A DNA stretch of 64,000 bases from Patescibacteria group bacterium (lineage in GTDB: Bacteria > Patescibacteriota > Minisyncoccia > JAHISW01 > Tagabacteraceae). The stretch lies in the NCBI GenBank assembly GCA_042577045.1, contig JBHPEK010000002.1:389-64388 (forward strand). Reading direction: 5' to 3'. Both the position numbers and the translations under genes were made by a program. A model generated the notes under the pieces. The model saw only the letters and a list, made by a program, of their open reading frames with translations, ran no database searches and was not told where the DNA came from. Position 1 is the first letter of the stretch, and every line of letters starts with the position of its first letter. Below are positions 13,486 through 57,066 of this stretch, piece after piece.

Positions 13486-15051
13486 TTAACGATTTTTGGG
13501 TGCAGGATATGTTATGTTTTTTTGCTTTCCTTTCATTATGGTTCTAAAAAACTCAATAAAAAGCCCTCTCACAAAATCTTTTAATCCTCTAATGGGATTT
13601 TTTATTTTAATGGGATAAATAAATTTTTTGAGGGTATATACTTTTACCAGATAAAAGAATATAAAAAAAACTGATTCAAAAAAACGTCCACGCCGGTAAA
13701 TGACGTGTTTTTTTATGAATGGAGCAAGCCAAGGTTGCCAAACAGCAAGTCCAGAAAGATAAAGAATATTTTTTTGGATATCTTTTTCTTTTTCAGAAAA
13801 GCAATTTAATGGGGATTTTCCCAGAATGGACTCACCAAAATCGTCTACTTCCATTTTGAAATATCCTTCATCTTCGCACTGTTTGCCAAGTTTAGTGCCG
13901 GGATAGGGTACTAGAATTGTTCGACTAGAAAACTTCACTCCTGCGGCAATTTCCAGATTAATAGTTTCTTCATCTGCCTTTATTATATCTTCAGTTTTTA
14001 TTGATCCTGTGGGTGGTAGCCCCAAAATCATATTATTAAAAACATTAATGCCATAATGTTTCAGTAATTTGAAATTTTCAACAACCATTTCATTAGAAAA
14101 ATTTTTGCCAATTACCTCTTTTCTTATTTGTTCACTTTCTGAGTCAATTGCAGTATTTACCGAAGTGCAACCTGCCTTTGATAAAAGTTTAGCCGTGTTT
14201 TCGTTAATAGAGTCTACTCGAAGCAAAACATTGAACGGGATACCAACTTTTTGAGGATATTTTTCAGCAAATTCCTCTAGCCAAGGGTCTTTTCCTCCCA
14301 CCACAAAAAGGTCGTCTTCAAATTTTATGAACTCAACTGGCCACCTTTTTTTGAGATCTAAAATTTCATCAATAACATGATCAACAGAATGTCTTCTTAC
14401 ATATTTTCCTAGTCCGCGATAGAGCTCCTTTAAAACAGTTTCAAAACAGTAAGAGCAATTAAATGGACAACCACGCGAGGTTATGAAAGTTTTTAGAGGG
14501 AAGTTGCCAATGCTTAAAGATTTTTCAAAAATGGTATCTCTGTCTGGGAATGGTAAAGAGTCAAGATCTGTAATCAACGGGCGGACGGGATTAGTTGGCC
14601 CATTTGGAAAGCCAAGATTAGCGATATTATAAAGATCTTCGGTTTTTGCCTCGCCGGCAAGTTTGTCTAAAAGTTCTGTGAATGCACCTTCTCCTTCGCC
14701 GATACATATTGCATCAATTGGTTGGTCTTTTACGCAGTTTGGATAAAAAGTAGGATGAGCCCCACCCATAATAGTAAATATATTTGGAAAATATTCTTTT
14801 ACTTTTTTGTTGAAAGAAAAATATTTTTGATGTGTGCCCGTAACAGCGCTATATGCGATAACATCCGGTTTGTAGTCTTCAATTTCTTTAAAAGGATTTT
14901 TGCTATTAGAAAGAATTAAAGCATTGCCATTGTGTCCAGCCTTTTTTGCTACGGCCAGAAGATAGGAAGGCCCCATTGGGTCTATAAAATCTTCGTTATC
15001 AATAATGAACAAAATCTTCAAGCCATTTTTTGAATATTCTTTTTCATGCAT
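13486..15051 (-). CDS. Cobalamin(B12)-binding radical SAM protein.
   Basis: B12-binding region (KPDVIAYSAVTG...IMGGAHPT). RGCPFNCSYC motif. Confidence 0.75.
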   Translation of the reverse strand: MHEKEYSKNGLKILFIIDNEDFIDPMGPSYLLAVAKKAGHNGNALILSNSKNPFKEIEDYKPDVIAYSAVTGTHQKYFSFNKKVKEYFPNIFTIMGGAHPTFYPNCVKDQPIDAICIGEGEGAFTELLDKLAGEAKTEDLYNIANLGFPNGPTNPVRPLITDLDSLPFPDRDTIFEKSLSIGNFPLKTFITSRGCPFNCSYCFETVLKELYRGLGKYVRRHSVDHVIDEILDLKKRWPVEFIKFEDDLFVVGGKDPWLEEFAEKYPQKVGIPFNVLLRVDSINENTAKLLSKAGCTSVNTAIDSESEQIRKEVIGKNFSNEMVVENFKLLKHYGINVFNNMILGLPPTGSIKTEDIIKADEETINLEIAAGVKFSSRTILVPYPGTKLGKQCEDEGYFKMEVDDFGESILGKSPLNCFSEKEKDIQKNILYLSGLAVWQPWLAPFIKKHVIYRRGRFFESVFFIFFYLVKVYTLKKFIYPIKIKNPIRGLKDFVRGLFIEFFRTIMKGKQKNITYPAPKNR

Positions 15052-15124: not shown

Positions 15125-15332
15125 CTGTGGGAGATCCAATCTCCCACAGATGAAAATATGAGTTGAAAAACCCGCAAAATAGGGGTAGCATATGGGGGTT
15201 ATGGATAGTAGCTCCTAAACAGTGACAAGCCTTTAAAAAATGGAGGCCTTCATATCCTCCTTTGCCTTTTTCGTCTTGTCACTGTTTAGGGGTTGGTATT
15301 AAGTTTTGGCGCCTCCGCAGAGGCGCTTTTTG
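15125..15332 (+). ncRNA. Candidate structured non-coding element in a GC-rich intergenic region: three hairpins, the last a canonical intrinsic terminator.
   Basis: Hairpin 15125-15149 (CTGTGGGAGAT/ATCTCCCACAG). A 16-bp inverted repeat 15214-15229/15275-15290 (CCTAAACAGTGACAAG) encloses an inner GGAGG/CCTCC stem. Hairpin GCGCCTC-CGCA-GAGGCGC plus TTTTT lies at 15308-15332. Confidence 0.25.
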
Positions 15333-15370
15333 GTTGTCAAAAGGGTTAAAATGGAGGTAGAATTAGGGGT

Positions 15371-16747
15371 ATGAAAAACTTGTGGATTTTATCAGAAGAG
15401 AGGCCCAAACATGAAGTTGTAAAAACAATAATTAAAAAATTTACTTCAGACAAAAGAGTTTCATGTAAAATTAAAGATTTAAAAATTTTACCACTTGTGT
15501 CAGATGGATGTTTCTTGTTTAAGTATGAAGTAACTGGGTTTAAATGTAAGAAAATAGAAAAAATTTTTATAAAATTGGCAAGTGGTGAATCAAGTTTTGT
15601 TGATTTCTTGCTTTTTTACCAAAAACAAGAACCAAGGGATGATTCCGTTCCCAGTTATGCCATAGAAGAAACAAAAACAAGTGACACAGAATCTCGCAAT
15701 ACTGGTGTTTATCAGCGGTGTAGCAAGTTTGTTTTTATTGATTATTATTATCCGAAAATTAAGAAGATAATGTTGCATAATAGTTTATTGCAAAAAAACA
15801 AGAAGCCAACAGAAACCAATATATTTGGTACACGAATGCTACTCACAGACAGGGTAGAAATTATGGGTAGGAAAGTTGATAAAAACACAAAAATCTTTAA
15901 AAATCTTGAAGAGTTAATTCAAGCAAAGAACGCAATGAAAGCTCCCTTCTACGGCTTGCCTATACGTATTAAAAAACAAAAGAACAAAATTTTTATTTCT
16001 GGAAGACTTTACAAATCGAGTGGTATTAATCATGATCCAAATATCGGTGCATTAACCATGATAGCACAAAACATACGCAAGTGGGACAAAAAAAGTAAAA
16101 TTATTATTACTGACCATGGGTTGAAACAAGAGCATGTTGGAAAGAGAAATAAATTTATTCTTATTGCCAATCGATTGAATATTAAATTAGAAGGACTAAC
16201 TATTCCTAAAACAAAAGAACATAAATCATACTGGCATTATGAGACCAAGCAAGAAAAAATCGGCACGATCTTTGTTCATATGAGTATCTTGGCATTTACT
16301 AAGGGGAAAATTATTTACGAAAACCATGGCGGTTGTGAACGAGGATATTTTGTTGGTAAGTCAAATTTGGTTGCTGTCAAAAAATATCAAGACGGTAAAA
16401 GAAGAGATTACAAAAGCGGGAACAAAACAGCAATTATCTATCTTCCCGATATTGTGGTTTGGGATCCGGTAAGGGAGGAAGTTGTTAATGCAGAGGGAAA
16501 AACATATTTGAAAAGGAAAAATGGAATAAAAGAGTTATCTAATTATAATTATTTCGAAAAGAATCTTATAAAGCCAGAGTATAATCCTAAAAGTATAAAA
16601 AGAATCGTTATTACTTTTGGCGGAAAAAAGAACAAAATTCGCGAGAAAAAAATAGGTTTTCATCTCAACGAAAACGGAGGAATTATTATAGGAAAAAATA
16701 CTCCTAAAATTATCACTGAGGCAGTAAATAAACTATTGTCTGCTTAA
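15371..16747 (+). CDS. Hypothetical 458-aa protein, convergent with two Dam-family methyltransferases. Speculative restriction-endonuclease candidate.
   Basis: No recognisable family motif. A possible D-x10-E-T-K (PD-ExK-like) stretch lies at RDDSVPSYAIEETK. Call rests on gene context only. Confidence 0.2.
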   Translation: MKNLWILSEERPKHEVVKTIIKKFTSDKRVSCKIKDLKILPLVSDGCFLFKYEVTGFKCKKIEKIFIKLASGESSFVDFLLFYQKQEPRDDSVPSYAIEETKTSDTESRNTGVYQRCSKFVFIDYYYPKIKKIMLHNSLLQKNKKPTETNIFGTRMLLTDRVEIMGRKVDKNTKIFKNLEELIQAKNAMKAPFYGLPIRIKKQKNKIFISGRLYKSSGINHDPNIGALTMIAQNIRKWDKKSKIIITDHGLKQEHVGKRNKFILIANRLNIKLEGLTIPKTKEHKSYWHYETKQEKIGTIFVHMSILAFTKGKIIYENHGGCERGYFVGKSNLVAVKKYQDGKRRDYKSGNKTAIIYLPDIVVWDPVREEVVNAEGKTYLKRKNGIKELSNYNYFEKNLIKPEYNPKSIKRIVITFGGKKNKIREKKIGFHLNENGGIIIGKNTPKIITEAVNKLLSA

Positions 16748-17794
16748 TAAATATAATTGTTCTCGTATGCGCTTTTTGTGTTGCGAGTCTCCGTTACTAT
16801 TACTTTTGAATCTTAAATAATCAATCTCTTTTAATTTTACATCGCCGTATTTTTTAAGAGTTTTCATTATTTCTTTTTGGGGCATAATTCCTTCAGAATT
16901 ATAGCTTAGCACTAAAGTTTTATATTTTGCCGAGAGAGCTATTTTATCAAGCGCTTCTATTGCTGTTTTTACATTACAAAACTCTGATTTTTGATGACTA
17001 TAATTACGCATTCCAGTCACGCCTTTAATTTCTGGGTTGTCATATTTTGCAACAGTTTCTAGTAGATGATAATTACCTCCATACTGCCTGCTGTTATACG
17101 GAGGGTCGATATACAAAACATCTGTTTCTAAATTATCCAAAAGATGCATGCTGTCTTGGTTATATACCCAGTGTTTTTTGTTTCCTGCATAAATCTTTAT
17201 TGGTTTTAGTTCAAATTTCTTTGTTGCGCGGGGATCATAATTTTTAAGGAAGGCGGCATAAACACCAGAAATATTTGCATAAAACGGCACACTTTCTACC
17301 AACATTGCCAGTAATACAAAATATTCATTTTTACTTATCAATTTTTGTTCGTTCCATTTTTCTATTTGTATTCTTATTGCATCAATTTTTTTTCCATTAT
17401 TACCTGTAAAATATTTTCTTGGATATTCTTGTTTGTTTGTTCCTTCAGGTGTGTAATTTTTATAAATAAAACCACTAACTCCTTTGAGGCTATTTAAATA
17501 TTCTCGCATTTTATCCAATGGAGAAATGAAAAGAGTGGTTCGCGGAATAGTGATTGTTTTTGAAAGTTTTGAAAAGTCAGGTTCCTTGTTGTTTTTTATA
17601 TAAGCTTTTTGAAGGACATAAGAAAAATAAAGTACATCGGAAGAAATAACCTGAAATCCTTTCTCTTTAAAATACCTGCCTACATTACTGGTGCCAGAAA
17701 AAAAATCACAAAATACACCATCTTTTATTTCTGTGGAACAGATAACTTCGTAAATATTCTCTAACAGTTTTTCTTTATTGCCTATAAAACGCAT
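16733..17794 (-). CDS. N6-adenine DNA methyltransferase, D12 class (T4 Dam-like, alpha group).
   Basis: N-terminal FIGNKEKLL and FCDFFSGTSNVG (motif I), then LYIDPPYN (motif IV) about 190 aa later. Confidence 0.75.
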   Translation of the reverse strand: MRFIGNKEKLLENIYEVICSTEIKDGVFCDFFSGTSNVGRYFKEKGFQVISSDVLYFSYVLQKAYIKNNKEPDFSKLSKTITIPRTTLFISPLDKMREYLNSLKGVSGFIYKNYTPEGTNKQEYPRKYFTGNNGKKIDAIRIQIEKWNEQKLISKNEYFVLLAMLVESVPFYANISGVYAAFLKNYDPRATKKFELKPIKIYAGNKKHWVYNQDSMHLLDNLETDVLYIDPPYNSRQYGGNYHLLETVAKYDNPEIKGVTGMRNYSHQKSEFCNVKTAIEALDKIALSAKYKTLVLSYNSEGIMPQKEIMKTLKKYGDVKLKEIDYLRFKSNSNGDSQHKKRIREQLYLLSRQ

Positions 17795-17795
17795 T

Positions 17796-19304
17796 TTAGT
17801 AATTCATTATCAATACCTCGCTTACTTTACCTCTTTTGTCAGCTTTACAGTTGAGCGATCTGTTGGATTCTACTTTTTCAATTTTATAATCCTTATAAAG
17901 AGTATTTATAAATTTGCAGTTGGAATTAGAAAGCATTATTTTTACTCCTTTTTTAGTAAGTTTGTTTATTAAGGTCTTTAAGCGTTCCTGATCCTCTTTA
18001 AAAAATTTTTCTTTTGTATATCGAGTAAAATTAGAATATTCCGAAATTGGATGATAGGGCGGATCAAGATAAACAAAATCGTCCTTTTTGGCTCCCTGAA
18101 GTGTTTTTTCAAAATCATCACATTTTATATCAGCCTCTTTAAGAATTTTGCTATCAGCTTTTATTGTTCCTTCGTCGCATATTAATCGATTTAAAGAACT
18201 ACCGATTGGAACATTGAATTGACTTTTTTTATTAACGCGATAAACACCATTAAACCCTGCTTGATTTAAATAAATCATGCGAGCAGCAATCTCTGCACTG
18301 TTTAATTCGTTGAAAATATTTATCTCGCGATCGAGTACACGAATTTTCATATATAATTCTTTTGAATGACGCTTTTTTAATTCTTTCAATAATTTAATTA
18401 CTTCTTCTGGATTGTCTCTAATTCCTTCGCAGGTCTTAATAAGTTCTAAGTTATTATCGTTGAGAACGGCCTTGTTTGGTTTTAAGTAAAAATACATTGC
18501 TCCGCCTCCCAAAAAGGGTTCATAAAAAGTATTGAATTTTGTGGGGAGAAATTTTTTGTATTGAGAAATCATTCCCCGTTTTCCTCCAACCCATTGAAGA
18601 AATGGCTTAATTTCTTTTTTTGTATCACTGGTTATTCTTCTCGCATGACTTGTGTAAGGGAATCGATAAATAATGTCTGCGAGTATTTCGATTTCATCTT
18701 TTTTAATTTCGAGGTTTCTAATTATGTTTATTACCACACCTCTTATTTCCACATCGGTTCTAAAGAAGGGGAGCATGGCTTGATTCATTGGCTGGAGTCT
18801 GATTCTGTCTTTTTCTTTGTATATTTTTTTTAGCGTTGCTTGGTTGTTGTCAATAATGGCCACAACTGTCTGGCCGTTATCTGCAGTTTTTTGTTCTTTA
18901 ATTACGACTGTGTCTCCGTCAAAAATTCCTTCTTCAATCATACTATCGCCCTTAACGCGTAGAGCGTAATGCTTACCCGAAGCGCTTAAGGTATTTTTTG
19001 CTACAGATATTGTTTCGCCAGGAATTTCTATGGCTTCTATTGGTTCACCAGCCGAGATGGTTCCAAGTAGTGGAATTTCTAGGATTGTTTTTGTTTCCAT
19101 TAGTTCAATAGATCGGGCGTGGCCTTTATTTTGTTTGATGTAGCCCTTTGTATCCAAAGCAGAAAGATGTTGGTGGACTGTTGGTTTTGATAACTTAAAC
19201 TTTTTTCCTGTTTCCTCGAGAGTAGGAGAGAATCCATTCTTTTCCTGAAAAGATTTTATGAAGTCTAGAACATTTTTTTGCTTCTTGGTAAGTGGTGTTG
19301 TCAT
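17796..19304 (-). CDS. Fusion protein: LexA-like repressor (winged HTH plus S24 peptidase) N-terminal to an E. coli Dam-like N6-adenine methyltransferase.
   Basis: N-terminal part: KQKNVLDFIKSFQEKNGFSPTLEE...SKPTVHQHL (LexA DNA-binding domain), then LLGTISAGEPIEA...RVKGDSMIEEGIFDGDTVVI and ATLKKI (S24 Ser/Lys dyad). C-terminal part: FLQWVGGKRG, EPFLGGGA, LNQAGFNGVYRVN...FNVPIG and YLDPPY, which align with E. coli Dam. Confidence 0.7.
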   Translation of the reverse strand: MTTPLTKKQKNVLDFIKSFQEKNGFSPTLEETGKKFKLSKPTVHQHLSALDTKGYIKQNKGHARSIELMETKTILEIPLLGTISAGEPIEAIEIPGETISVAKNTLSASGKHYALRVKGDSMIEEGIFDGDTVVIKEQKTADNGQTVVAIIDNNQATLKKIYKEKDRIRLQPMNQAMLPFFRTDVEIRGVVINIIRNLEIKKDEIEILADIIYRFPYTSHARRITSDTKKEIKPFLQWVGGKRGMISQYKKFLPTKFNTFYEPFLGGGAMYFYLKPNKAVLNDNNLELIKTCEGIRDNPEEVIKLLKELKKRHSKELYMKIRVLDREINIFNELNSAEIAARMIYLNQAGFNGVYRVNKKSQFNVPIGSSLNRLICDEGTIKADSKILKEADIKCDDFEKTLQGAKKDDFVYLDPPYHPISEYSNFTRYTKEKFFKEDQERLKTLINKLTKKGVKIMLSNSNCKFINTLYKDYKIEKVESNRSLNCKADKRGKVSEVLIMNY

Positions 19305-19456
19305 TTATATTTTTTATCCGCAATGGCATTTGTGGATTTTTGTTTTTATACTATAATTATATCAGATACCTAACAAAATACGAATTTAGAATGTGGGGAT
19401 AAGTATTTAGGTTCGGGTCGATGGTATAAATTATTATTAATTAACAGTAAAAAAAG

Positions 19457-19744
19457 ATGAAAGTAGTTAACATAAACAACACTAGCGACAACACCTGTAG
19501 TTGCGGTAGTTGGCTTGAGCACTGGAAGGATTTTAGTAATCAATCCCTTCCAAGTTGTTGTCCAGAAAAGAGTTGTCCCAACAAGCCTGATGTAGGAGCT
19601 CATGTGCAAAAGGATAGTGTCAATGACAATAATTGGTACATTGTTCCACTTTGCAAAGATTGTAACGCAAAAGCTGGGGGTTCGTTAGAAATTGGAGATG
19701 ATATTGCCTTGGTGGCTGCCAGTGTAAATGAAACTTGTGGTTAA
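19457..19744 (+). CDS. Small Cys-rich hypothetical protein (possible Zn-binding).
   Basis: Contains CSCGSWLEHW...CCPEKSC...PLCKDCN. It is divergent from the LexA-Dam gene. Confidence 0.3.
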   Translation: MKVVNINNTSDNTCSCGSWLEHWKDFSNQSLPSCCPEKSCPNKPDVGAHVQKDSVNDNNWYIVPLCKDCNAKAGGSLEIGDDIALVAASVNETCG

Positions 19745-19990: not shown

Positions 19991-20683
19991 ATGAACAACT
20001 CTGTATCAGTTGTAATTCCAGCTTTGAACGAGGATCAAACCTTAGAAAAAGTGACTGTAAATTTAGATGCTTTTTTAAAAAAAGGTGGTTTTGACTATGA
20101 AATAATAATTGTTGATGATGGCTCAACAGACAAAACTGGTCAAATTGCCGACCAATTGATGTCTCAAAATGAAAGAGTTAGAACACTACACAACACCAAA
20201 AATATGGGCTTTGGTTACGCTTTTAAAAGGGGGATTGAAAATGCTTCAAAGACATGGGCAACTCTTGTTACTGCAGATGATGAAGTAGAAATAGAAGACA
20301 TACCACTTTTTCTTCCCCATGCAGAAAAATCGGATATTATTATTGGCTATATAAACAATAAGTGGATAAGATCAAGGATGCGTAGATTTTTGTCGTGGGG
20401 TTTCAGGACTACCGTAAGAATATTATTTAAAATGAATTTTGAAGGTATCAATGGCATGCCATTCTATAGGGTTTCTGAAGTTAATAAACTAGACATTATG
20501 TCTGACGATTTTAGTATTCAAGCTGAGATTTTAGTTAAAGGAGCTAAGAAAGGTTTGCGGGTTGGTAAGTTCGGGTATCGTATTAAGCCTCGTCTTGCTG
20601 GTGAGGCCAAAGCAACACAACCTAAGCATATATGGAGAGCCCTTGTTTCAACTATGAAGTTGTGGCAGGATATAAAAAAGTAA
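19991..20683 (+). CDS. GT2 family glycosyltransferase (polyprenol-phosphate sugar synthase-like).
   Basis: VSVVIPALNE and IIIVDDGSTDKT motifs. About 230 aa. Confidence 0.7.
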   Translation: MNNSVSVVIPALNEDQTLEKVTVNLDAFLKKGGFDYEIIIVDDGSTDKTGQIADQLMSQNERVRTLHNTKNMGFGYAFKRGIENASKTWATLVTADDEVEIEDIPLFLPHAEKSDIIIGYINNKWIRSRMRRFLSWGFRTTVRILFKMNFEGINGMPFYRVSEVNKLDIMSDDFSIQAEILVKGAKKGLRVGKFGYRIKPRLAGEAKATQPKHIWRALVSTMKLWQDIKK

Positions 20684-20738
20684 ATGTTTTCCGCCGAAGG
20701 CGGACAGGTTTGAAAATAGAATAACGGAGGTTGTAAAC

Positions 20739-21806
20739 ATGAATTTACAGTTATCAGGCAACAAATTACTTTATCACCTTGACGCTTTAAGGAAGTGGCA
20801 AGAAGGTCGGGATTTTTATCCCCTAAATTTAGAGATTGGTCCCACTTCGGCTTGTAATGTTAGGTGTGTTCATTGTTACGTTCAACATCTAGAGCACAAA
20901 CGAGTATATTTACCAGATGATGCTTATCTGAATTTGATTACGGATATTATCACAGCAAAGATTAAAGCGATTGTTTTTTGTGGAACTGGTGAACCTCTTT
21001 TGCACAAGAAAACACCCGAAGCAATAGTTTTGGCTGAACAGGGTGGCATTGATGTTGGCATGATAACAAATGGAACATTGCTTACACCTAGTGTTGCCAA
21101 ACAAATTTTGCCCAAAATGACATGGATGCGTTTCAGCATTTTAGGGATAAAAGAGGAGACATATAATAAGCTTCATGGAATAAAAGGAAAAATATGGGAA
21201 AGGTTATATTCTAATCTGGAAGAAGCTTCTCGCTTGAAAAGAGAGAATGGGTATAAAGTTACTTTCGGCGTTTCCTGTGCTTTAATGCCAGAAAATGGGC
21301 ACGAGATTCATCTAATGGCAAAAAAATTTAGTGATTTAGGTTTTGATTATTTTGTGATTAGACCCGTTGGGCAAGATATGGCACATGCCATAGTTGCAGA
21401 TACGGATCTTTCCAAAAGGTTTGAAAAGGAATTGGAAATGGCTGAAAATTATTCTTCAGACACCTTTAAAGTTGTTGTTAGAAGAGAACTATTTGGTTAT
21501 GAAGAGGATCAGGAAACCAAAAGACATTATGAAAAGTGTTTAGCTCTGCCATTTCTTGCTTGCGTTGATGCCGATGGTTCTTTGTACACCTGCAATGGTC
21601 GTTGGGGGGAAGAAGATTATACTTACGGCAATATTAATCAGAAATCTTTTTTAGATATCTGGAATTCACCCGAACATAAGAAAAAAATGAAGAACTTAAT
21701 GGCTACAACAGATGTTAAAACATGCGGGATTGTATGTCGCCAGAATAGTATGAATGAATTACTCCAGCAAATTTCCGATATTCCCGACCATGTGAATTTC
21801 CTATGA
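20739..21806 (+). CDS. Radical SAM protein with a SPASM/twitch C-terminal domain. Paralog of 11427..12530.
   Basis: CNVRCVHC motif. C-terminal CLALPFLACVDADGSLYTCNG...CGIVCRQ. The stop overlaps the next start. Confidence 0.7.
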   Translation: MNLQLSGNKLLYHLDALRKWQEGRDFYPLNLEIGPTSACNVRCVHCYVQHLEHKRVYLPDDAYLNLITDIITAKIKAIVFCGTGEPLLHKKTPEAIVLAEQGGIDVGMITNGTLLTPSVAKQILPKMTWMRFSILGIKEETYNKLHGIKGKIWERLYSNLEEASRLKRENGYKVTFGVSCALMPENGHEIHLMAKKFSDLGFDYFVIRPVGQDMAHAIVADTDLSKRFEKELEMAENYSSDTFKVVVRRELFGYEEDQETKRHYEKCLALPFLACVDADGSLYTCNGRWGEEDYTYGNINQKSFLDIWNSPEHKKKMKNLMATTDVKTCGIVCRQNSMNELLQQISDIPDHVNFL

Positions 21807-22375
21807 TGAATTTTACTTTTGAACATGTTTCCGGTTCTTGTAAATATCATCGGGATATAGGGCGGGTGTATACTTTTAAAGACTTAGTTCCTGAAGGGCT
21901 TTGTCCGCATGCATACTTTGTTGCTTATCCATATTGCTTGGGTTTATTACATGAGGCAAAGTTTAGCTGGATGAAAAATATAGATGAAAATACAGTAATA
22001 GCTCAATGTCCAGCTCCGTCAAATCCTATTGTTATGAAAATTTGGCGAGACTTAATTCCAAAAGAAAAAAGAAAAACAGACAAGGATGACGACAGATATA
22101 ACATCTTTATTGAACTAGTAGAGAAGTTGGAAGATTCTACAAAAGTTTATAAAAGTTGTCAGAATTGCGCTCAAACAATGAAAGTAGAAAGAAAATGGGA
22201 GTTTAACAAAGGTCAACTTGCTGGTATTTGTCCAGCGGCGTTTAATCAAATGTTTCCCTACCTTGTGGCGCTAGAAAATGGTGGGCATCTTGATTGGCAA
22301 AATAAAGATGGAAGTGTTACATTGCCTTGCCCAGACAATATTAGTAAGGTTAATTTCTTAGTTAAAGTAGTATAG
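21803..22375 (+). CDS. Small Cys-rich protein with a duplicated G-[LI]-C-P-x-A-[FY]...PY motif, translationally coupled to the SPASM radical SAM protein (possibly TIGR04076-like).
   Basis: GLCPHAYFVAYPY and GICPAAFNQMFPY, plus CQNC and LPCP. ATGA overlap with the upstream gene. Confidence 0.4.
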   Translation: MMNFTFEHVSGSCKYHRDIGRVYTFKDLVPEGLCPHAYFVAYPYCLGLLHEAKFSWMKNIDENTVIAQCPAPSNPIVMKIWRDLIPKEKRKTDKDDDRYNIFIELVEKLEDSTKVYKSCQNCAQTMKVERKWEFNKGQLAGICPAAFNQMFPYLVALENGGHLDWQNKDGSVTLPCPDNISKVNFLVKVV

Positions 22376-22390
22376 CACAACGAAATTCAA

Positions 22391-22427
22391 AAAGAGTCAA
22401 CATTGTTTGGCTCTTTTTTTGATGTTA
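22391..22427 (+). repeat. Copy 2 of the 37-nt intergenic element.
   Basis: Identical 37-mer to 11344..11380. Confidence 0.7.
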
Positions 22428-22474
22428 GTTTTAAGCCAAACAGTCTTTGAAAACAAAATAAAGGAGGTTATAAA

Positions 22475-24001
22475 TTGGAAACTGACAAAATTATATCTCT
22501 AGAAAACTTGATTAAAAAATTAGAGTATATTAAAAAAACAGGTGAAAAAATTATCCACTGTCATGGTTGCTTTGATTTGATACATCCTGGCCACATCAAA
22601 CATTTTCAAGCGGCAAAAAAACTTGGAGATATTTTGGTTGTTACGGTTACTTCGGATAGGCTTGTAAATAAGGGGCCGGGACGACCTGTCTTTAATCAAG
22701 ATTTAAGGATGGAGACAGTTGCGGCAATTGGTTGTGTTGATTTCGTAGTCTTAAATGATGATAGTGATTCAGTTAGTTTGATTACAACACTAAAGCCAGA
22801 CTATTTCGTGAAAGATCAAGAGTTTCAAGAAGCAGCTTGGAATGATCCAGAATCTGCTATTTATAGAGAGCGAATTGCCGTTGAGTCAGTTGGTGGAAAA
22901 TTTCATGCTACTACCGAAATACGTTTTAGTTCTAGTCGTCTTTTGGGTGATTTTTTTGGTACTCAATCTGAATCTGCTGTGGGCTTTTTGAGTTCGTTTC
23001 GCGATAGATACGCACCAGAAGAAATTATAGAAAGATTTGAATTGCTGAAGAATTTGAAAGTTTTAGTTATTGGCGATGCTATCATAGATGTTTATTCGTA
23101 TGTTGACCCAATGGGTAAATCCACGAAAGCTAATGATGTTATTGCCTGCAACTATTTATCTGAAGAAACTTTTGCCGGTGGCATAATGGCATGCGCTAAT
23201 CATCTTGCTGGTTTTTGCGAGCAAGTTGATATGTTAACATGTCTTGGAAAAAAAGGGCGTTCTTACCATGATTTTATCGTCAGTAATTTAAAAGATAATG
23301 TGAGTCCTCTTTTTTTGTTCAGAGAGGATGCGCCTACTGTTTGCAAAAGGCGGTTTATAGATGAACCTTTTCTAAACAAAATATTTGAACTTTATTATTT
23401 TGACGATCGCATGGTTTTCGAAGATGTTGAGAATGAAGCGCTAGAGGTGTTGCAGAATATTCAAGATTATGATCTTGTCTTGGTGTCTGACTTTGGTCAT
23501 GGCTTTTTAAGTCCTGAGTTGATTAACTTGATCTGCCAAAAATCTAATTTTTTGGCTCTCAATGTTCAAACCAATACTGGTAATTTTGGTTACAACTTGG
23601 TAACAAAGTATCCTCGAGCAGATTTTGTTTGTATTGATAGGCCGGAAGTTTCTTTGGCCTGTCACAAAAAAGGCGGTAACTACGAAGAAATGCTGTCGTT
23701 TTTGAGAAAAAAATTGAGCTGTCAAAACATAATTATGACTGGTGGACATGAAAGTACTTGGACTCTTGGTCCTGAGGGTTTTGGGCAGGTGCCAATTTTT
23801 TCGTCTAAAGTTGTTGATACTGTTGGTGCTGGGTGTGCTTTTTTATCGGTAGTTTCGCCGTGTGCTTTTTGGGGATGGCCTACCGAATTATTGGCTTTTG
23901 TTGGAAATGTTGTTGGCGCTTTGGCGGTTGGTATTGTTGGCAACCGTTCTTCTGTTGAGCCAAAAGATTTCTTTCGGTTCCTTACTACTCTATTGAAATA
24001 A
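22475..24001 (+). CDS. Bifunctional cytidylyltransferase-like nucleotidyltransferase (N-terminal) plus PfkB-family sugar kinase (C-terminal). HldE-like but with reversed domain order.
   Basis: N-terminal HCHGCFDLIHPGHIKHF...ILVVTVTSD resembles RfaE domain II/TagD. C-terminal VLVIGDAIIDVY and DTVGAGCAF match PfkB motifs. TTG start after AAGGAGG. Confidence 0.65.
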   Translation: METDKIISLENLIKKLEYIKKTGEKIIHCHGCFDLIHPGHIKHFQAAKKLGDILVVTVTSDRLVNKGPGRPVFNQDLRMETVAAIGCVDFVVLNDDSDSVSLITTLKPDYFVKDQEFQEAAWNDPESAIYRERIAVESVGGKFHATTEIRFSSSRLLGDFFGTQSESAVGFLSSFRDRYAPEEIIERFELLKNLKVLVIGDAIIDVYSYVDPMGKSTKANDVIACNYLSEETFAGGIMACANHLAGFCEQVDMLTCLGKKGRSYHDFIVSNLKDNVSPLFLFREDAPTVCKRRFIDEPFLNKIFELYYFDDRMVFEDVENEALEVLQNIQDYDLVLVSDFGHGFLSPELINLICQKSNFLALNVQTNTGNFGYNLVTKYPRADFVCIDRPEVSLACHKKGGNYEEMLSFLRKKLSCQNIIMTGGHESTWTLGPEGFGQVPIFSSKVVDTVGAGCAFLSVVSPCAFWGWPTELLAFVGNVVGALAVGIVGNRSSVEPKDFFRFLTTLLK

Positions 24002-46413: not shown

Positions 46414-47300
46414 TATTTATTATAGATAACGATTTCAGCAAGAAGGCCAAAGAAAAGAGTTTGAAGCGCCGTAGCAAAAAGAATTAAAATTGTTGTGTCA
46501 TAGAAGGTGGAAATAATTCCAAGAAAAAACAGAACAGTTAAAACTAGAGGTACAGCAAGTAAAAGCAAACTTAAGGGCAAGAAAACTTTAATTGGCCTGA
46601 AGAAAAGAGAAAGTTTTGTTACTAGCTTCAAGAAATTTATAAAGTCTACAGCTCGGATAGAAGATTTTCCTTTTCTTTTGTAATATTCAATGGGAATAAA
46701 TTTAGTTGGATAGCTGTGACTTAGGCATACCATTGTCAGAGTAGAGGTAAAAGAAAATTTTTCTGGAAAAAGATCCCAATATTTTATAACTATATCTTTT
46801 TTAAACATTCGCAGTCCACAGTTTAAATCTGGTATCTTTGAGCTTACCAGGTAACTAGTAAACCTATTTAGAAAGTTTTTTGCCCATCTTCTTTCAAAAG
46901 GAATTCCTTTTCCGTTTATTTGTCGGTGGCCGGTAATTAGGTCGTAGTTGTTAGATTGTTTTATGAGGTCAGGAATAGAATGAACTGGATAAGTGCCATC
47001 CCCGTCCATAATAATTATCCAATTGTATTTGCTATGCCGAATACCAGTCTTCAAGCTGGCGCCGTATCCTTTATTGATAGGGTGATGTAGTACAATTGTT
47101 GGATCAGGGGAATTGTGAATCTGTTCTAGGATTTCTTCACATTTGTCGGTAGAACAATCATTAACAAGTATTATTTCGTAATTTCTAGAAAATTGTGGTT
47201 CAAGAGTATCAATAATACCAGAAACTGTGTTTTTTATCGTTTCGGCTTCATTATATACAGGAATAATTATAGAAAAATTTTTAGCAATTTCACTTTGCAT
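46413..47300 (-). CDS. GT2 polyprenol-phosphate glycosyltransferase (DPM-synthase/ArnC/GtrB-like) with a C-terminal transmembrane region.
   Basis: FSIIIPVYNEAETI and ILVNDCSTD. C-terminal hydrophobic helices. Confidence 0.7.
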   Translation of the reverse strand: MQSEIAKNFSIIIPVYNEAETIKNTVSGIIDTLEPQFSRNYEIILVNDCSTDKCEEILEQIHNSPDPTIVLHHPINKGYGASLKTGIRHSKYNWIIIMDGDGTYPVHSIPDLIKQSNNYDLITGHRQINGKGIPFERRWAKNFLNRFTSYLVSSKIPDLNCGLRMFKKDIVIKYWDLFPEKFSFTSTLTMVCLSHSYPTKFIPIEYYKRKGKSSIRAVDFINFLKLVTKLSLFFRPIKVFLPLSLLLLAVPLVLTVLFFLGIISTFYDTTILILFATALQTLFFGLLAEIVIYNK

Positions 47301-56518: not shown

Positions 56519-56799
56519 TCGATGTTTAGAACATTATAATTTATGATTTAGATATTGTTTCGAATTTCGATATTCGGATTTCGGATTTTCTTCTTAAAAA
56601 ATTATTAGTTAACAATTTTTTAAGAATGTTATCCACATTTTTTTATTTCTTTTGTTTCTTTTTATTCAAAATTTATTTAAAATTAATATAGGAATGCAGA
56701 AAATTTTTTAATTTTTTCTTTTAAAATTTTTTAGCACCCTGCATTTCTGAAGCAAATATTTGGCGGTCGATGTTTGTTATTTTAAAAACGTAAATAAAA

Positions 56800-57066
56800 A
56801 TGATTCGACGCAAAAAGAAAGTCAAGAAAGTAGTCAAGAAAAAGCCAGCCAAGAAAGCACCTGCTAAGAGAAAAGTAGCTAAGAGAAAGGTGGTTAAGAG
56901 AAAAGTAGCCAAGAAAGTACCTGCTAAGAGAAAAGTAGCTAAGAGAAAGGTGGTTAAGAAGAAGGTGGCAAAAAGAAAACCGGCCAAGAAGAAGGTAGTA
57001 AAGAAAAAGCCAGCCAAGAAAGCACCTGCTAAGAGAAAAGTAGTACGCAGAAAAAAGAAGAAATAA
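56800..57066 (+). CDS. Histone H1-like, Lys/Ala-rich basic DNA-binding protein.
   Basis: 88 aa made almost entirely of KKxPAKRKVAKRKVV repeats. The DNA consists of tandem repeats of about 36 nt. Antisense ORFs are artefacts. Confidence 0.6.
   Translation: MIRRKKKVKKVVKKKPAKKAPAKRKVAKRKVVKRKVAKKVPAKRKVAKRKVVKKKVAKRKPAKKKVVKKKPAKKAPAKRKVVRRKKKK

Follow-up and report, generated by a model that had tools for sequence, protein, structure and literature searches.

A LexA-like repressor fused in frame to a Dam-like DNA methyltransferase in a putative type IIS restriction-modification module of Patescibacteria

Methylation in a restriction-modification system has to stay ahead of cleavage without becoming so high that invaders are protected. 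What role could a complete LexA repressor have at the N terminus of a methyltransferase? This question is raised by a gene, here called M1, on contig JBHPEK010000002.1 of a Patescibacteria group bacterium (NCBI GenBank assembly GCA_042577045.1), which we analyzed within a stretch of 64,000 nucleotides (nt) that we refer to as the window. We think it rather likely that M1 is the first methyltransferase of a mobile type IIS module, with an autorepressing, damage-cleavable LexA controller of methyltransferase expression. The parts of M1, in window positions, are listed below; lengths in amino acids are abbreviated aa, and ORF denotes an open reading frame.

17796..19304, minus strand: M1, LexA-S24-D12 methyltransferase fusion gene, 502 aa plus stop (ORF, Pfam, NCBIfam, AF2, and Foldseek)
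19113..19298, minus strand: LexA winged-helix DNA-binding domain, residues 3-64 (PF01726 LexA_DNA_bind, E 8.6e-16), with the recognition helix SKPTVHQHLSAL inside it
18729..19073, minus strand: S24 autopeptidase/dimerization domain, residues 78-192 (PF00717 Peptidase_S24, E 1.8e-29)
19047-19052, minus strand: cleavage site A85-G86 (codons read in the DNA)
18942-18944, minus strand: Ser121 (codon read in the DNA)
18828-18830, minus strand: Lys159 (codon read in the DNA)
18594..18728, minus strand: linker of 45 residues (193-237), motif FPxTxxxxR...KPFLQ
17799..18593, minus strand: D12-class (DpnM/Dam-like) N6-adenine DNA methyltransferase domain, residues 238-502

M1 starts with ATG and continues in one reading frame, with zero internal stops over 502 codons. 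All three Pfam domains (LexA_DNA_bind, Peptidase_S24, and MethyltransfD12) were recovered by profile searches, as the initial annotation had predicted, with scores far beyond the curated cutoffs; the match to PF02086 MethyltransfD12 covers residues 238-483 (E 5.9e-57). Among the NCBIfam models, the lexA equivalog TIGR00498 matched residues 3-198 with 182.5 bits (cutoff 110.95), and the dam model TIGR00571 matched residues 232-501 with 263.5 bits (cutoff 114.85). Over their full length, the N-terminal 200 residues align with the Thermotoga and Escherichia coli LexA structures, and the E. coli LexA residues A84-G85, S119, and K156 (1jhh/7b5g) correspond to A85-G86 (ISAGEP), S121 (KGDSM), and K159 (TLKK) of M1. 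This alignment and the profile matches bear out the annotated winged helix and complete S24 domain with the GDSM serine and TLKK lysine. M1 does not qualify as a stand-alone LexA of approximately 200 aa, given that the methyltransferase follows in frame for a total of 502 aa.

The C-terminal half was annotated as a Dam-type methyltransferase, which agrees with the PF02086 and TIGR00571 matches; all of the motifs quoted for it are present and colinear (KPFLQWVGGK, YEPFLGGGA, NGVYRVN..QFNVPIG, VYLDPPY). Its closest solved structure is DpnM (2dpm, E 6e-72). An AlphaFold (AF2) model of M1 based on 56 homologues had a predicted local distance difference test (pLDDT) score of 77.9 and a predicted template modeling (pTM) score of 0.73. 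The model consists of a winged domain of three helices (7-23, 29-36, 40-52) plus a wing, an S24 domain rich in beta strands, whose cleavage loop (87-93) is modeled with low confidence, the linker, and a Dam-fold domain. In Foldseek comparisons, the template modeling (TM) score was 0.88 for the Dam-fold domain against DpnM and Dam and 0.73-0.76 for the S24 domain against LexA C-terminal domains. Both halves of M1 are complete and seem to be catalytically competent.

The fusion is not confined to the window. The identical M1 protein is present in NCBI on a 69-kb contig, and approximately 57 further protein clusters from JGI, ENA, Logan, and NCBI assemblies, with 56-77% identity to M1, have the same three domains in approximately 500 aa. 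In addition, 11 species-representative metagenome-assembled genomes carry the fusion, among them Buchananbacteria, Nealsonbacteria, Nomurabacteria, Taylorbacteria, Komeilibacteria, Paceibacterota, and others. Together with the uninterrupted frame, these clusters and genomes confirm the LexA-Dam fusion that had been read from the window. A85, G86, S121, K159, FxGxG (EPFLGGGA), and DPPY are invariant in 56 aligned close fusions. One related cluster, P0122 (90% identity; a 512-aa LexA-D12 fusion), also includes 338-aa NCBI members that have no LexA part and are annotated "DNA adenine methylase"; these members could reflect different start calls or truncation of the genes, or they could be truly unfused variants. 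Viral contigs in IMG/VR yielded no LexA-fused relative, only bare methyltransferases, so a phage origin of the fusion is unsupported.

M1 lies next to two further genes, and the endonuclease gene is preceded by its own promoter-like site.

16733..17794, minus strand: M2, second D12-class methyltransferase, 353 aa (PF02086, E 6e-38)
15371..16747, plus strand: putative type IIS restriction endonuclease, 458 aa, convergent with M2 and overlapping it by 15 bp
15334..15363, plus strand: endonuclease promoter-like site TTGTCA-18-TAGAAT, without a LexA-type repeat

One base separates the stop codon of M1 from the start codon of M2 (TAA-A-ATG), and M2 is found directly 3' of M1 in all of the relatives' loci L001-L015, L027, L161, and L162. 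M1 and M2, both of the D12 class, are always neighbors, and the endonuclease gene is adjacent to them. Because this trio was kept in every relative examined and the flanking genes of the window were not, we regard the module as mobile. The 458-aa product is putatively a BsmI-like type IIS endonuclease on the basis of its fold and neighborhood: a fold search alone gave an identification (BsmI, 9ezd), and all 2216 of its homologues are annotated as hypothetical. Compared with BsmI-type type IIS endonucleases (9ezd), it has approximately 10% identity, 458 rather than 667 aa, and no Pfam family. Sequence searches of PDB gave zero matches for the endonuclease or M2, and searches of NCBIfam gave zero matches for the endonuclease and, for M2, only RsmD, far below threshold. 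A type IIS enzyme with an asymmetric site would account for the presence of two methyltransferases in the module, which would serve the two strands of that site. With M2 and a BsmI-like endonuclease beside M1, the restriction-modification setting that had been suggested for the fusion is upheld.

If LexA serves as the regulator of this module, the N-terminal domain and the operator should change together, and comparison with other forms of M1 bears on this point. Among the relatives of M1 that lack LexA, the closest ones have no N-terminal domain at all (bare forms) or have a helix-turn-helix (HTH) domain of the Cro/C1 type, HTH_26. In tblastn alignments, homology between M1 and these relatives begins at M1 residue 202-208. 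The linker motif FPxTxNxxR...KPF(L/I)QWVGGK is common to the LexA-fused, HTH_26-fused, and bare forms; judging from this motif, the linker is ancestrally part of the methyltransferase, and the N-terminal domain was therefore exchanged at a fixed junction. Promoters of the HTH_26 forms lack the direct repeat described below and have the palindrome TATCAAC-N6-GTTGATA, presumably the operator of these forms. We observed this palindrome approximately 40 nt upstream of position 7785 in L013 and L014 and at approximately 7760 in L012. Operator type thus tracks the N-terminal domain, LexA occurring with the direct repeat and HTH_26 with the palindrome, which is expected if the N-terminal domain is an autoregulator. 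The best explanation is that a short N-terminal autoregulatory HTH of M1 was replaced by a whole LexA.

Promoters of the fusion genes almost always carry a direct repeat with a period of 11 bp, (T/G)TTC(G/T)(G/A)T-N4-(T/G)TTC(G/T)(G/A)T, placed between a -35-like hexamer and TATAAT or, in reverse orientation, just downstream of the -10 hexamer. The pattern TTTCNNT-N4-TTTCNNT was matched at ≥9/10 in 64 of 77 distinct upstream regions, compared with approximately 7% of random 130-nt control segments from the same loci. When the pattern was relaxed, 73 matches fell within 160 nt upstream of 85 fusion starts, versus 144 in the other 1.5 Mb. The Alphaproteobacteria LexA operator is likewise a direct repeat, GTTC-N7-GTTC, and a direct-repeat LexA motif is cited in a later paper as the SOS box of Patescibacteria (Sanchez-Osuna et al. 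2017, as given in that citing paper).

The half-sites of the repeat vary with the recognition helix. In the helix motif ..T(A/V/I)H-x-H.., Q or E at x is accompanied by a CGG half-site, and F, H, or Y at x by C(T/G)A. Among 65 distinct helix-operator pairs there were no exceptions (24/0/0/41; Fisher p = 2.5e-18, not corrected for phylogeny). The further half-site variants GTTCGGT and ATCGGG each have their own helix variant. Two contigs carry two fusion genes each, approximately 1 kb apart. In L126 (3971-5863 and 7056-8582), STAHHH occurs with TTTCTAT and STVHEH with TTTCGGT; in L097 (2615-4225 and 5242-7092), GTIHEH occurs with TTTCGG and FSTVHEH with TATCGG. A small convergent ORF, a possible endonuclease gene, lies between the two fusions of L126. 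These data strongly suggest that the LexA domain of the fusions binds the direct repeat and that specificities insulated from one another have arisen within the family. The existence of several operator specificities implies that co-resident systems could be regulated independently. No LexA box was found in the endonuclease upstream regions of 14 relatives, and in the flanks of the 85 loci the only matches, besides those of the second fusions of L126 and L097, were chance-like mixed half-sites.

A second element accompanies these promoters. The perfect DnaA-box 9-mer TTATCCACA is enriched approximately 140-fold just upstream of the LexA-methyltransferase genes of the relatives. A total of 603 kb contained 56 exact copies, of which 42 are no more than 150 nt away from the start codons; these 42 are spread over 40 of the 85 loci. 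The copies upstream of fusions occur in either orientation and usually abut the -35 hexamer. This element may link methyltransferase expression to DnaA and replication.

The promoter region of M1 in the window contains the following elements.

19368..19385, minus strand: degenerate LexA-type operator ATTCGTA-TTTT-GTTAGGT, a direct repeat with an 11-bp period, overlapping the -35 hexamer and spacer
19379-19384, minus strand: weak -35 hexamer TTCGTA of the M1-M2 operon
19356..19361, minus strand: putative -10 hexamer TATAAT of the M1-M2 operon (read directly)
19392..19402, minus strand: degenerate DnaA-box-like element TTATCCcCACA, upstream of the promoter
19316..19337, minus strand: inverted repeat ATCCACAA-N6-TTGCGGAT in the 5' leader of M1

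The degenerate repeat occupies the place that corresponds by homology to the operators of the relatives, and the spacing between the -10 hexamer and the repeat is the same in the window as in L002, L004, and L081. The M1 helix reads PTVHQH, in which Q47 in the H-x-H motif predicts a CGG-type half-site. With a position weight matrix (PWM) of the CGG type, the window operator scores 8.7 bits, rank 4 of 127,966 window positions, compared with 19-28 bits for true sites. The best PWM match elsewhere in the window, 13.8 bits at 46910, is inside a coding region and is probably due to chance. The initial annotation had directed attention to the regions upstream of M1 and of the endonuclease as places for an operator; a repeat, though degenerate, is present in the former and none in the latter. 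The DnaA-box copies at the window fusion gene are all degenerate. Each arm of ATCCACAA-N6-TTGCGGAT is DnaA-box-like, and on the plus strand this inverted repeat reads as a terminator-like hairpin. Exact copies of TTATCCACA in the window (51174 and 56629, plus strand) lie upstream of unrelated genes.

How widely is this arrangement distributed? The family loci were gathered by similarity to the query. A family-seeded metagenome scan returned many LexA-containing ORFs of 500-712 aa, not approximately 200 aa. When 10 of these ORFs were scanned for domains, nine had LexA, S24, and a D12, N6_N4, or C5 methyltransferase, and the remaining one was a 248-aa LexA without a methyltransferase domain. A HMMER search with M1 residues 1-205 against 1.84 billion representatives gave 448 matches below 1e-30. 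The best matches (approximately 60) were mostly 378-890 aa long with LexA at residues 2-200, and canonical LexAs of approximately 200 aa appeared only at 46-49% identity and lower. All 52 of the long representatives that we scanned contained LexA_DNA_bind, S24, and a DNA methyltransferase, distributed over the C-terminal classes N6_N4_Mtase (31), Eco57I-type (7), D12 (5), gamma-class N6_Mtase (5), and C5 DNA_methylase (3). Ala-Gly, Ser, and Lys were again invariant in these 52 distant fusions. Every family member with an organism name belongs to Patescibacteria. The fusion had been called unusual; this is correct among characterized systems, but the architecture is not rare, since it forms a large Patescibacteria family with D12, N6_N4, Eco57I, gamma, and C5 methyltransferases.

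The C-terminal parts of the fusions form at least six clusters that are unrelated by BLAST and are interspersed on the LexA tree. At least 24 switches of C-terminal class are seen on a rough neighbor-joining (NJ) tree built from the LexA parts, which suggests that different enzymes have repeatedly acquired a LexA cassette by recombination. These observations are best explained by a portable LexA cassette (promoter, operator, and LexA coding part) that has been joined to every DNA methyltransferase class in Patescibacteria. A broader proposal, which we hold tentatively, is that the nearest LexA clade consists of portable self-cleaving controller cassettes for restriction-modification methyltransferases, with orthogonal helix-operator pairs, and not primarily of repair regulators. 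According to this proposal, a DnaA-box-like element would belong to each cassette in addition to the promoter, the direct-repeat operator, and the LexA coding part.

For the M1 module itself, we propose the following mechanism. In the resting state, the LexA part would dimerize via its S24 domain. The operator data strongly suggest that this dimer binds the 11-bp-period direct repeat over the -35 and -10 hexamers of the M1-M2 promoter, and that the bound repeat keeps methyltransferase expression low by negative autoregulation of M1-M2. The trigger would be single-stranded DNA with RecA filaments, for example after self-restriction of under-methylated DNA. The S24 domain would then cleave itself between A85 and G86, stimulated by RecA*, and detachment of the 85-residue DNA-binding domain would derepress the M1-M2 operon, leaving an untethered S24-methyltransferase fragment. 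This differs from the earlier idea that cleavage releases the methyltransferase from LexA: only the DNA-binding domain would detach, and S24 would stay on the enzyme. The endonuclease would remain on its own promoter. The net outcome would be a shift toward modification, a built-in restriction alleviation that could quench self-restriction. Given that M2 is made as its own polypeptide and that the endonuclease gene has an independent promoter, a damage-induced shift to modification is the simplest outcome.

Several points weigh against this mechanism. Cleavage, RecA dependence, and DNA binding are properties that we infer from the sequences, and if the S24-methyltransferase fragment were degraded, the outcome would reverse. 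The window operator is weak, with a C to A change in its second half-site; given this degeneracy, autoregulation in the window genome may be weak or lost. Perfect boxes are present in L161 and L162, whose proteins are the most similar to M1 (77% and 70% identity). We did not find recA in the window or in any Patescibacteria locus examined, the one locus with it being an irrelevant one from Binataceae. The Fisher test ignores phylogeny, the NJ tree is rough, and the share of fused LexAs is overestimated for the phylum because the loci entered the set through their resemblance to the query. The initial annotation's view of LexA as a regulator of the module is backed, in the form of transcriptional autoregulation, by the operators of the relatives, helix co-variation, and the HTH swap, but the degenerate operator detracts from it in the window.

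One alternative, which we regard as unlikely, is that the module acts as a suicide or abortive infection switch: RecA*-triggered cleavage would destabilize the methyltransferase through degradation of the S24-methyltransferase fragment, methylation would fall, the endonuclease would persist, and a damaged or phage-infected cell would restrict both its own DNA and newly replicated phage DNA. The same intact cleavage machinery fits this alternative, as does an endonuclease promoter that is independent and has no LexA box. In addition, the new C terminus that cleavage would create (..IAA in the family, ..ISA in the window) resembles the VAA end of the E. coli LexA N-terminal fragment, which reportedly marks that fragment for ClpXP, and E. 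coli LexA fragments are degraded after cleavage. However, this degron-like end would be on the DNA-binding fragment and not on the methyltransferase fragment. Cleavage would also derepress the operon, so synthesis of M1 and unfused M2 would go up, and M2, which is unattached to LexA, would rise regardless.

It is similarly improbable that the fusion is the organism's only LexA and runs the SOS regulon, with the methyltransferase as a co-translated passenger. M1 passes the NCBIfam lexA equivalog cutoff, and no second LexA-like ORF was found in the 64-kb window, leaving M1 as the single one. The nearest LexA relatives are almost all fused, with canonical LexAs of approximately 200 aa only at about 46-49% identity, and a direct-repeat LexA motif is cited as the Patescibacteria SOS box. 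Against this stand the M1-M2-endonuclease modules of other lineages, which have a Cro/C1 HTH or no N-terminal domain, the lack of conserved flanking genes around a mobile module, the two contigs with two fusions each of different operator specificities, and the fact that neither the window nor the flanks of the 85 loci contain another strong box. A housekeeping role is made less likely by the mobility of the module, by the forms with HTH_26, and by the paired fusions.

We consider it very unlikely that LexA is present only as a ready-made DNA-binding and dimerization module whose cleavage is physiologically unused or answers a signal other than RecA*. In its favor, the Cro/C1 HTH of the sister proteins does the presumed regulation without a protease. 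However, Ala-Gly, Ser, and Lys are invariant over 108 sequences that are just 29-77% identical overall; this would be unexpected if cleavage were dispensable, and it speaks against a role as repressor only. Finally, that assembly or gene calling joined separate lexA and dam genes is hardly credible and can be taken as refuted, since nothing was found in support besides the 338-aa methylases without a LexA part in one related cluster, and the DNA has one frame with no stop, dozens of independent assemblies (JGI, ENA, Logan, NCBI) show the same architecture, and the junction and linker are conserved.

Which DNA target does M1 modify? The initial annotation had assumed GATC, which is not assured. 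The E. coli Dam equivalog NF008152 scored 139 bits on M1, below its cutoff of 441. The position equivalent to K9 of Dam, a residue involved in Dam-DNA contacts, is an invariant Gln in the M1 family (FLQW). This Gln, the BsmI-like partner, the second methyltransferase, and the failure to reach the E. coli Dam equivalog model all cast doubt on GATC, and M1 probably targets an asymmetric site instead. The observed/expected ratio of GATC in the window was 0.83, a value that carries no information on the target. A maximal-order Markov analysis of k-mer depletion gave no usable signal; the most depleted words in the window were unrelated palindromes and did not point to an M1 target.

The surroundings of the module include genes for B12-binding radical SAM, glycosyltransferase, and sugar-nucleotide functions (window 13486-15051, minus strand, and 19991-24001, plus strand) and, farther away, SecA, MurB, and an O-antigen ligase-like gene. 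Because of these neighbors, we consider the module to lie in a chromosome and not in a phage or plasmid. Upstream of M1 and divergent from it is an ORF of 95 aa that is rich in Cys and His (CSCGSW...CCPEKSC...VPLCKDCN; 19457-19744, plus strand); it had zero matches in Pfam and NCBIfam and may encode a small zinc-finger or HNH-like protein. With no counterpart beside M1 in the relatives, it is ruled out as a module member. Upstream of the endonuclease promoter there is a long inverted repeat, AAACAGTGACAAG ... CTTGTCACTGTTT (window about 15217-15287, plus strand), and just 5' of that promoter a GC-rich terminator-like hairpin (GGCGCCTCCGCAGAGGCGCT plus a T run; about 15308-15327, plus strand). 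At a distance from the module, four tandem heptamers, TTTCGAA TTTCGAT ATTCGGA TTTCGGA (56558-56590, plus strand), are LexA-half-site-like but have a 7-bp period. They sit 40 nt upstream of an exact GTTATCCACA, and approximately 210 nt farther downstream is a small ORF (about 56800-57066, plus strand) for a lysine-rich, histone-H1-like repeat protein (KKVAKRK...).

Short N-terminal HTH regulators on methyltransferases and separate C proteins are established. What appears to be new is a full, predicted self-cleaving LexA as a methyltransferase regulator, across all methyltransferase classes and with orthogonal operators. In the literature we found no description of natural LexA-methyltransferase fusions, although most subscription papers were outside the search and a prior description is possible. 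If our mechanism is correct, LexA in the enzyme provides a direct DNA-damage input, by which the cell senses its own restriction damage and raises modification; the literature search found no description of such a damage-input control principle for restriction-modification. If the controller-cassette proposal also holds, self-restriction damage feeds back on methylation, and several systems per small genome can be tuned independently. Patescibacteria reportedly lack CRISPR for the most part and would then depend more on restriction-modification. The family would also constitute a natural set of orthogonal LexA helix-operator pairs, in which Q/E versus F/H/Y tracks CGG versus C(T/G)A, that could be useful for engineering. 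For annotation, many Patescibacteria proteins called "transcriptional repressor LexA" or "DNA adenine methylase" are both.

Comparison with known systems places M1 between several of them. Like LexA (TIGR00498; E. coli 1jhh, T. maritima 3k2z), M1 has a winged helix, an S24 domain with an Ala-Gly site and a Ser/Lys dyad, and a putative operator in its own promoter, which is a direct repeat with an 11-bp period as in Alphaproteobacteria. Unlike LexA, the LexA of M1 is covalently joined to a 300-aa DNA methyltransferase inside a mobile restriction-modification module; the fusions occur in several specificity variants, sometimes two per contig, and control of repair genes is not evidenced.

The enzyme half resembles DpnM and Dam (TIGR00571; 2dpm, 2g1p) in fold, motif order, and the FxGxG and DPPY motifs, with 40% identity to DpnM by structural alignment. 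It differs from them in the Gln at the K9-equivalent position and in having both another D12 methyltransferase and a BsmI-like enzyme as partners.

With respect to regulation, methyltransferases of the M.SsoII, M.EcoRII, and M.MspI type have an N-terminal autoregulatory HTH. The fusion shares with the M.SsoII type, and with its HTH_26-M1 sisters, an N-terminal DNA-binding domain on the modification enzyme and an operator in its own promoter. Unlike the M.SsoII type, it has a full LexA with dimerization and autoprotease functions, which would add a damage-sensing, irreversible off-switch. Controller (C) proteins of type II restriction-modification systems are small dimeric HTH regulators that balance methyltransferase and endonuclease via operators in the system's promoters, and the LexA of the fusion would likewise act through operators in the promoters of its own system. 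In contrast to the fusion, C proteins are not part of the enzyme polypeptide, act in most cases as activators of the endonuclease gene, and are not known to receive a DNA-damage input. In type I systems, SOS-linked restriction alleviation occurs by ClpXP-dependent proteolysis of an endonuclease subunit. As in that process, DNA damage would tip the balance of the M1 module away from restriction, sparing the host chromosome; unlike in type I alleviation, the proposed route is derepression of the methyltransferase operon by a LexA that is built into the enzyme.

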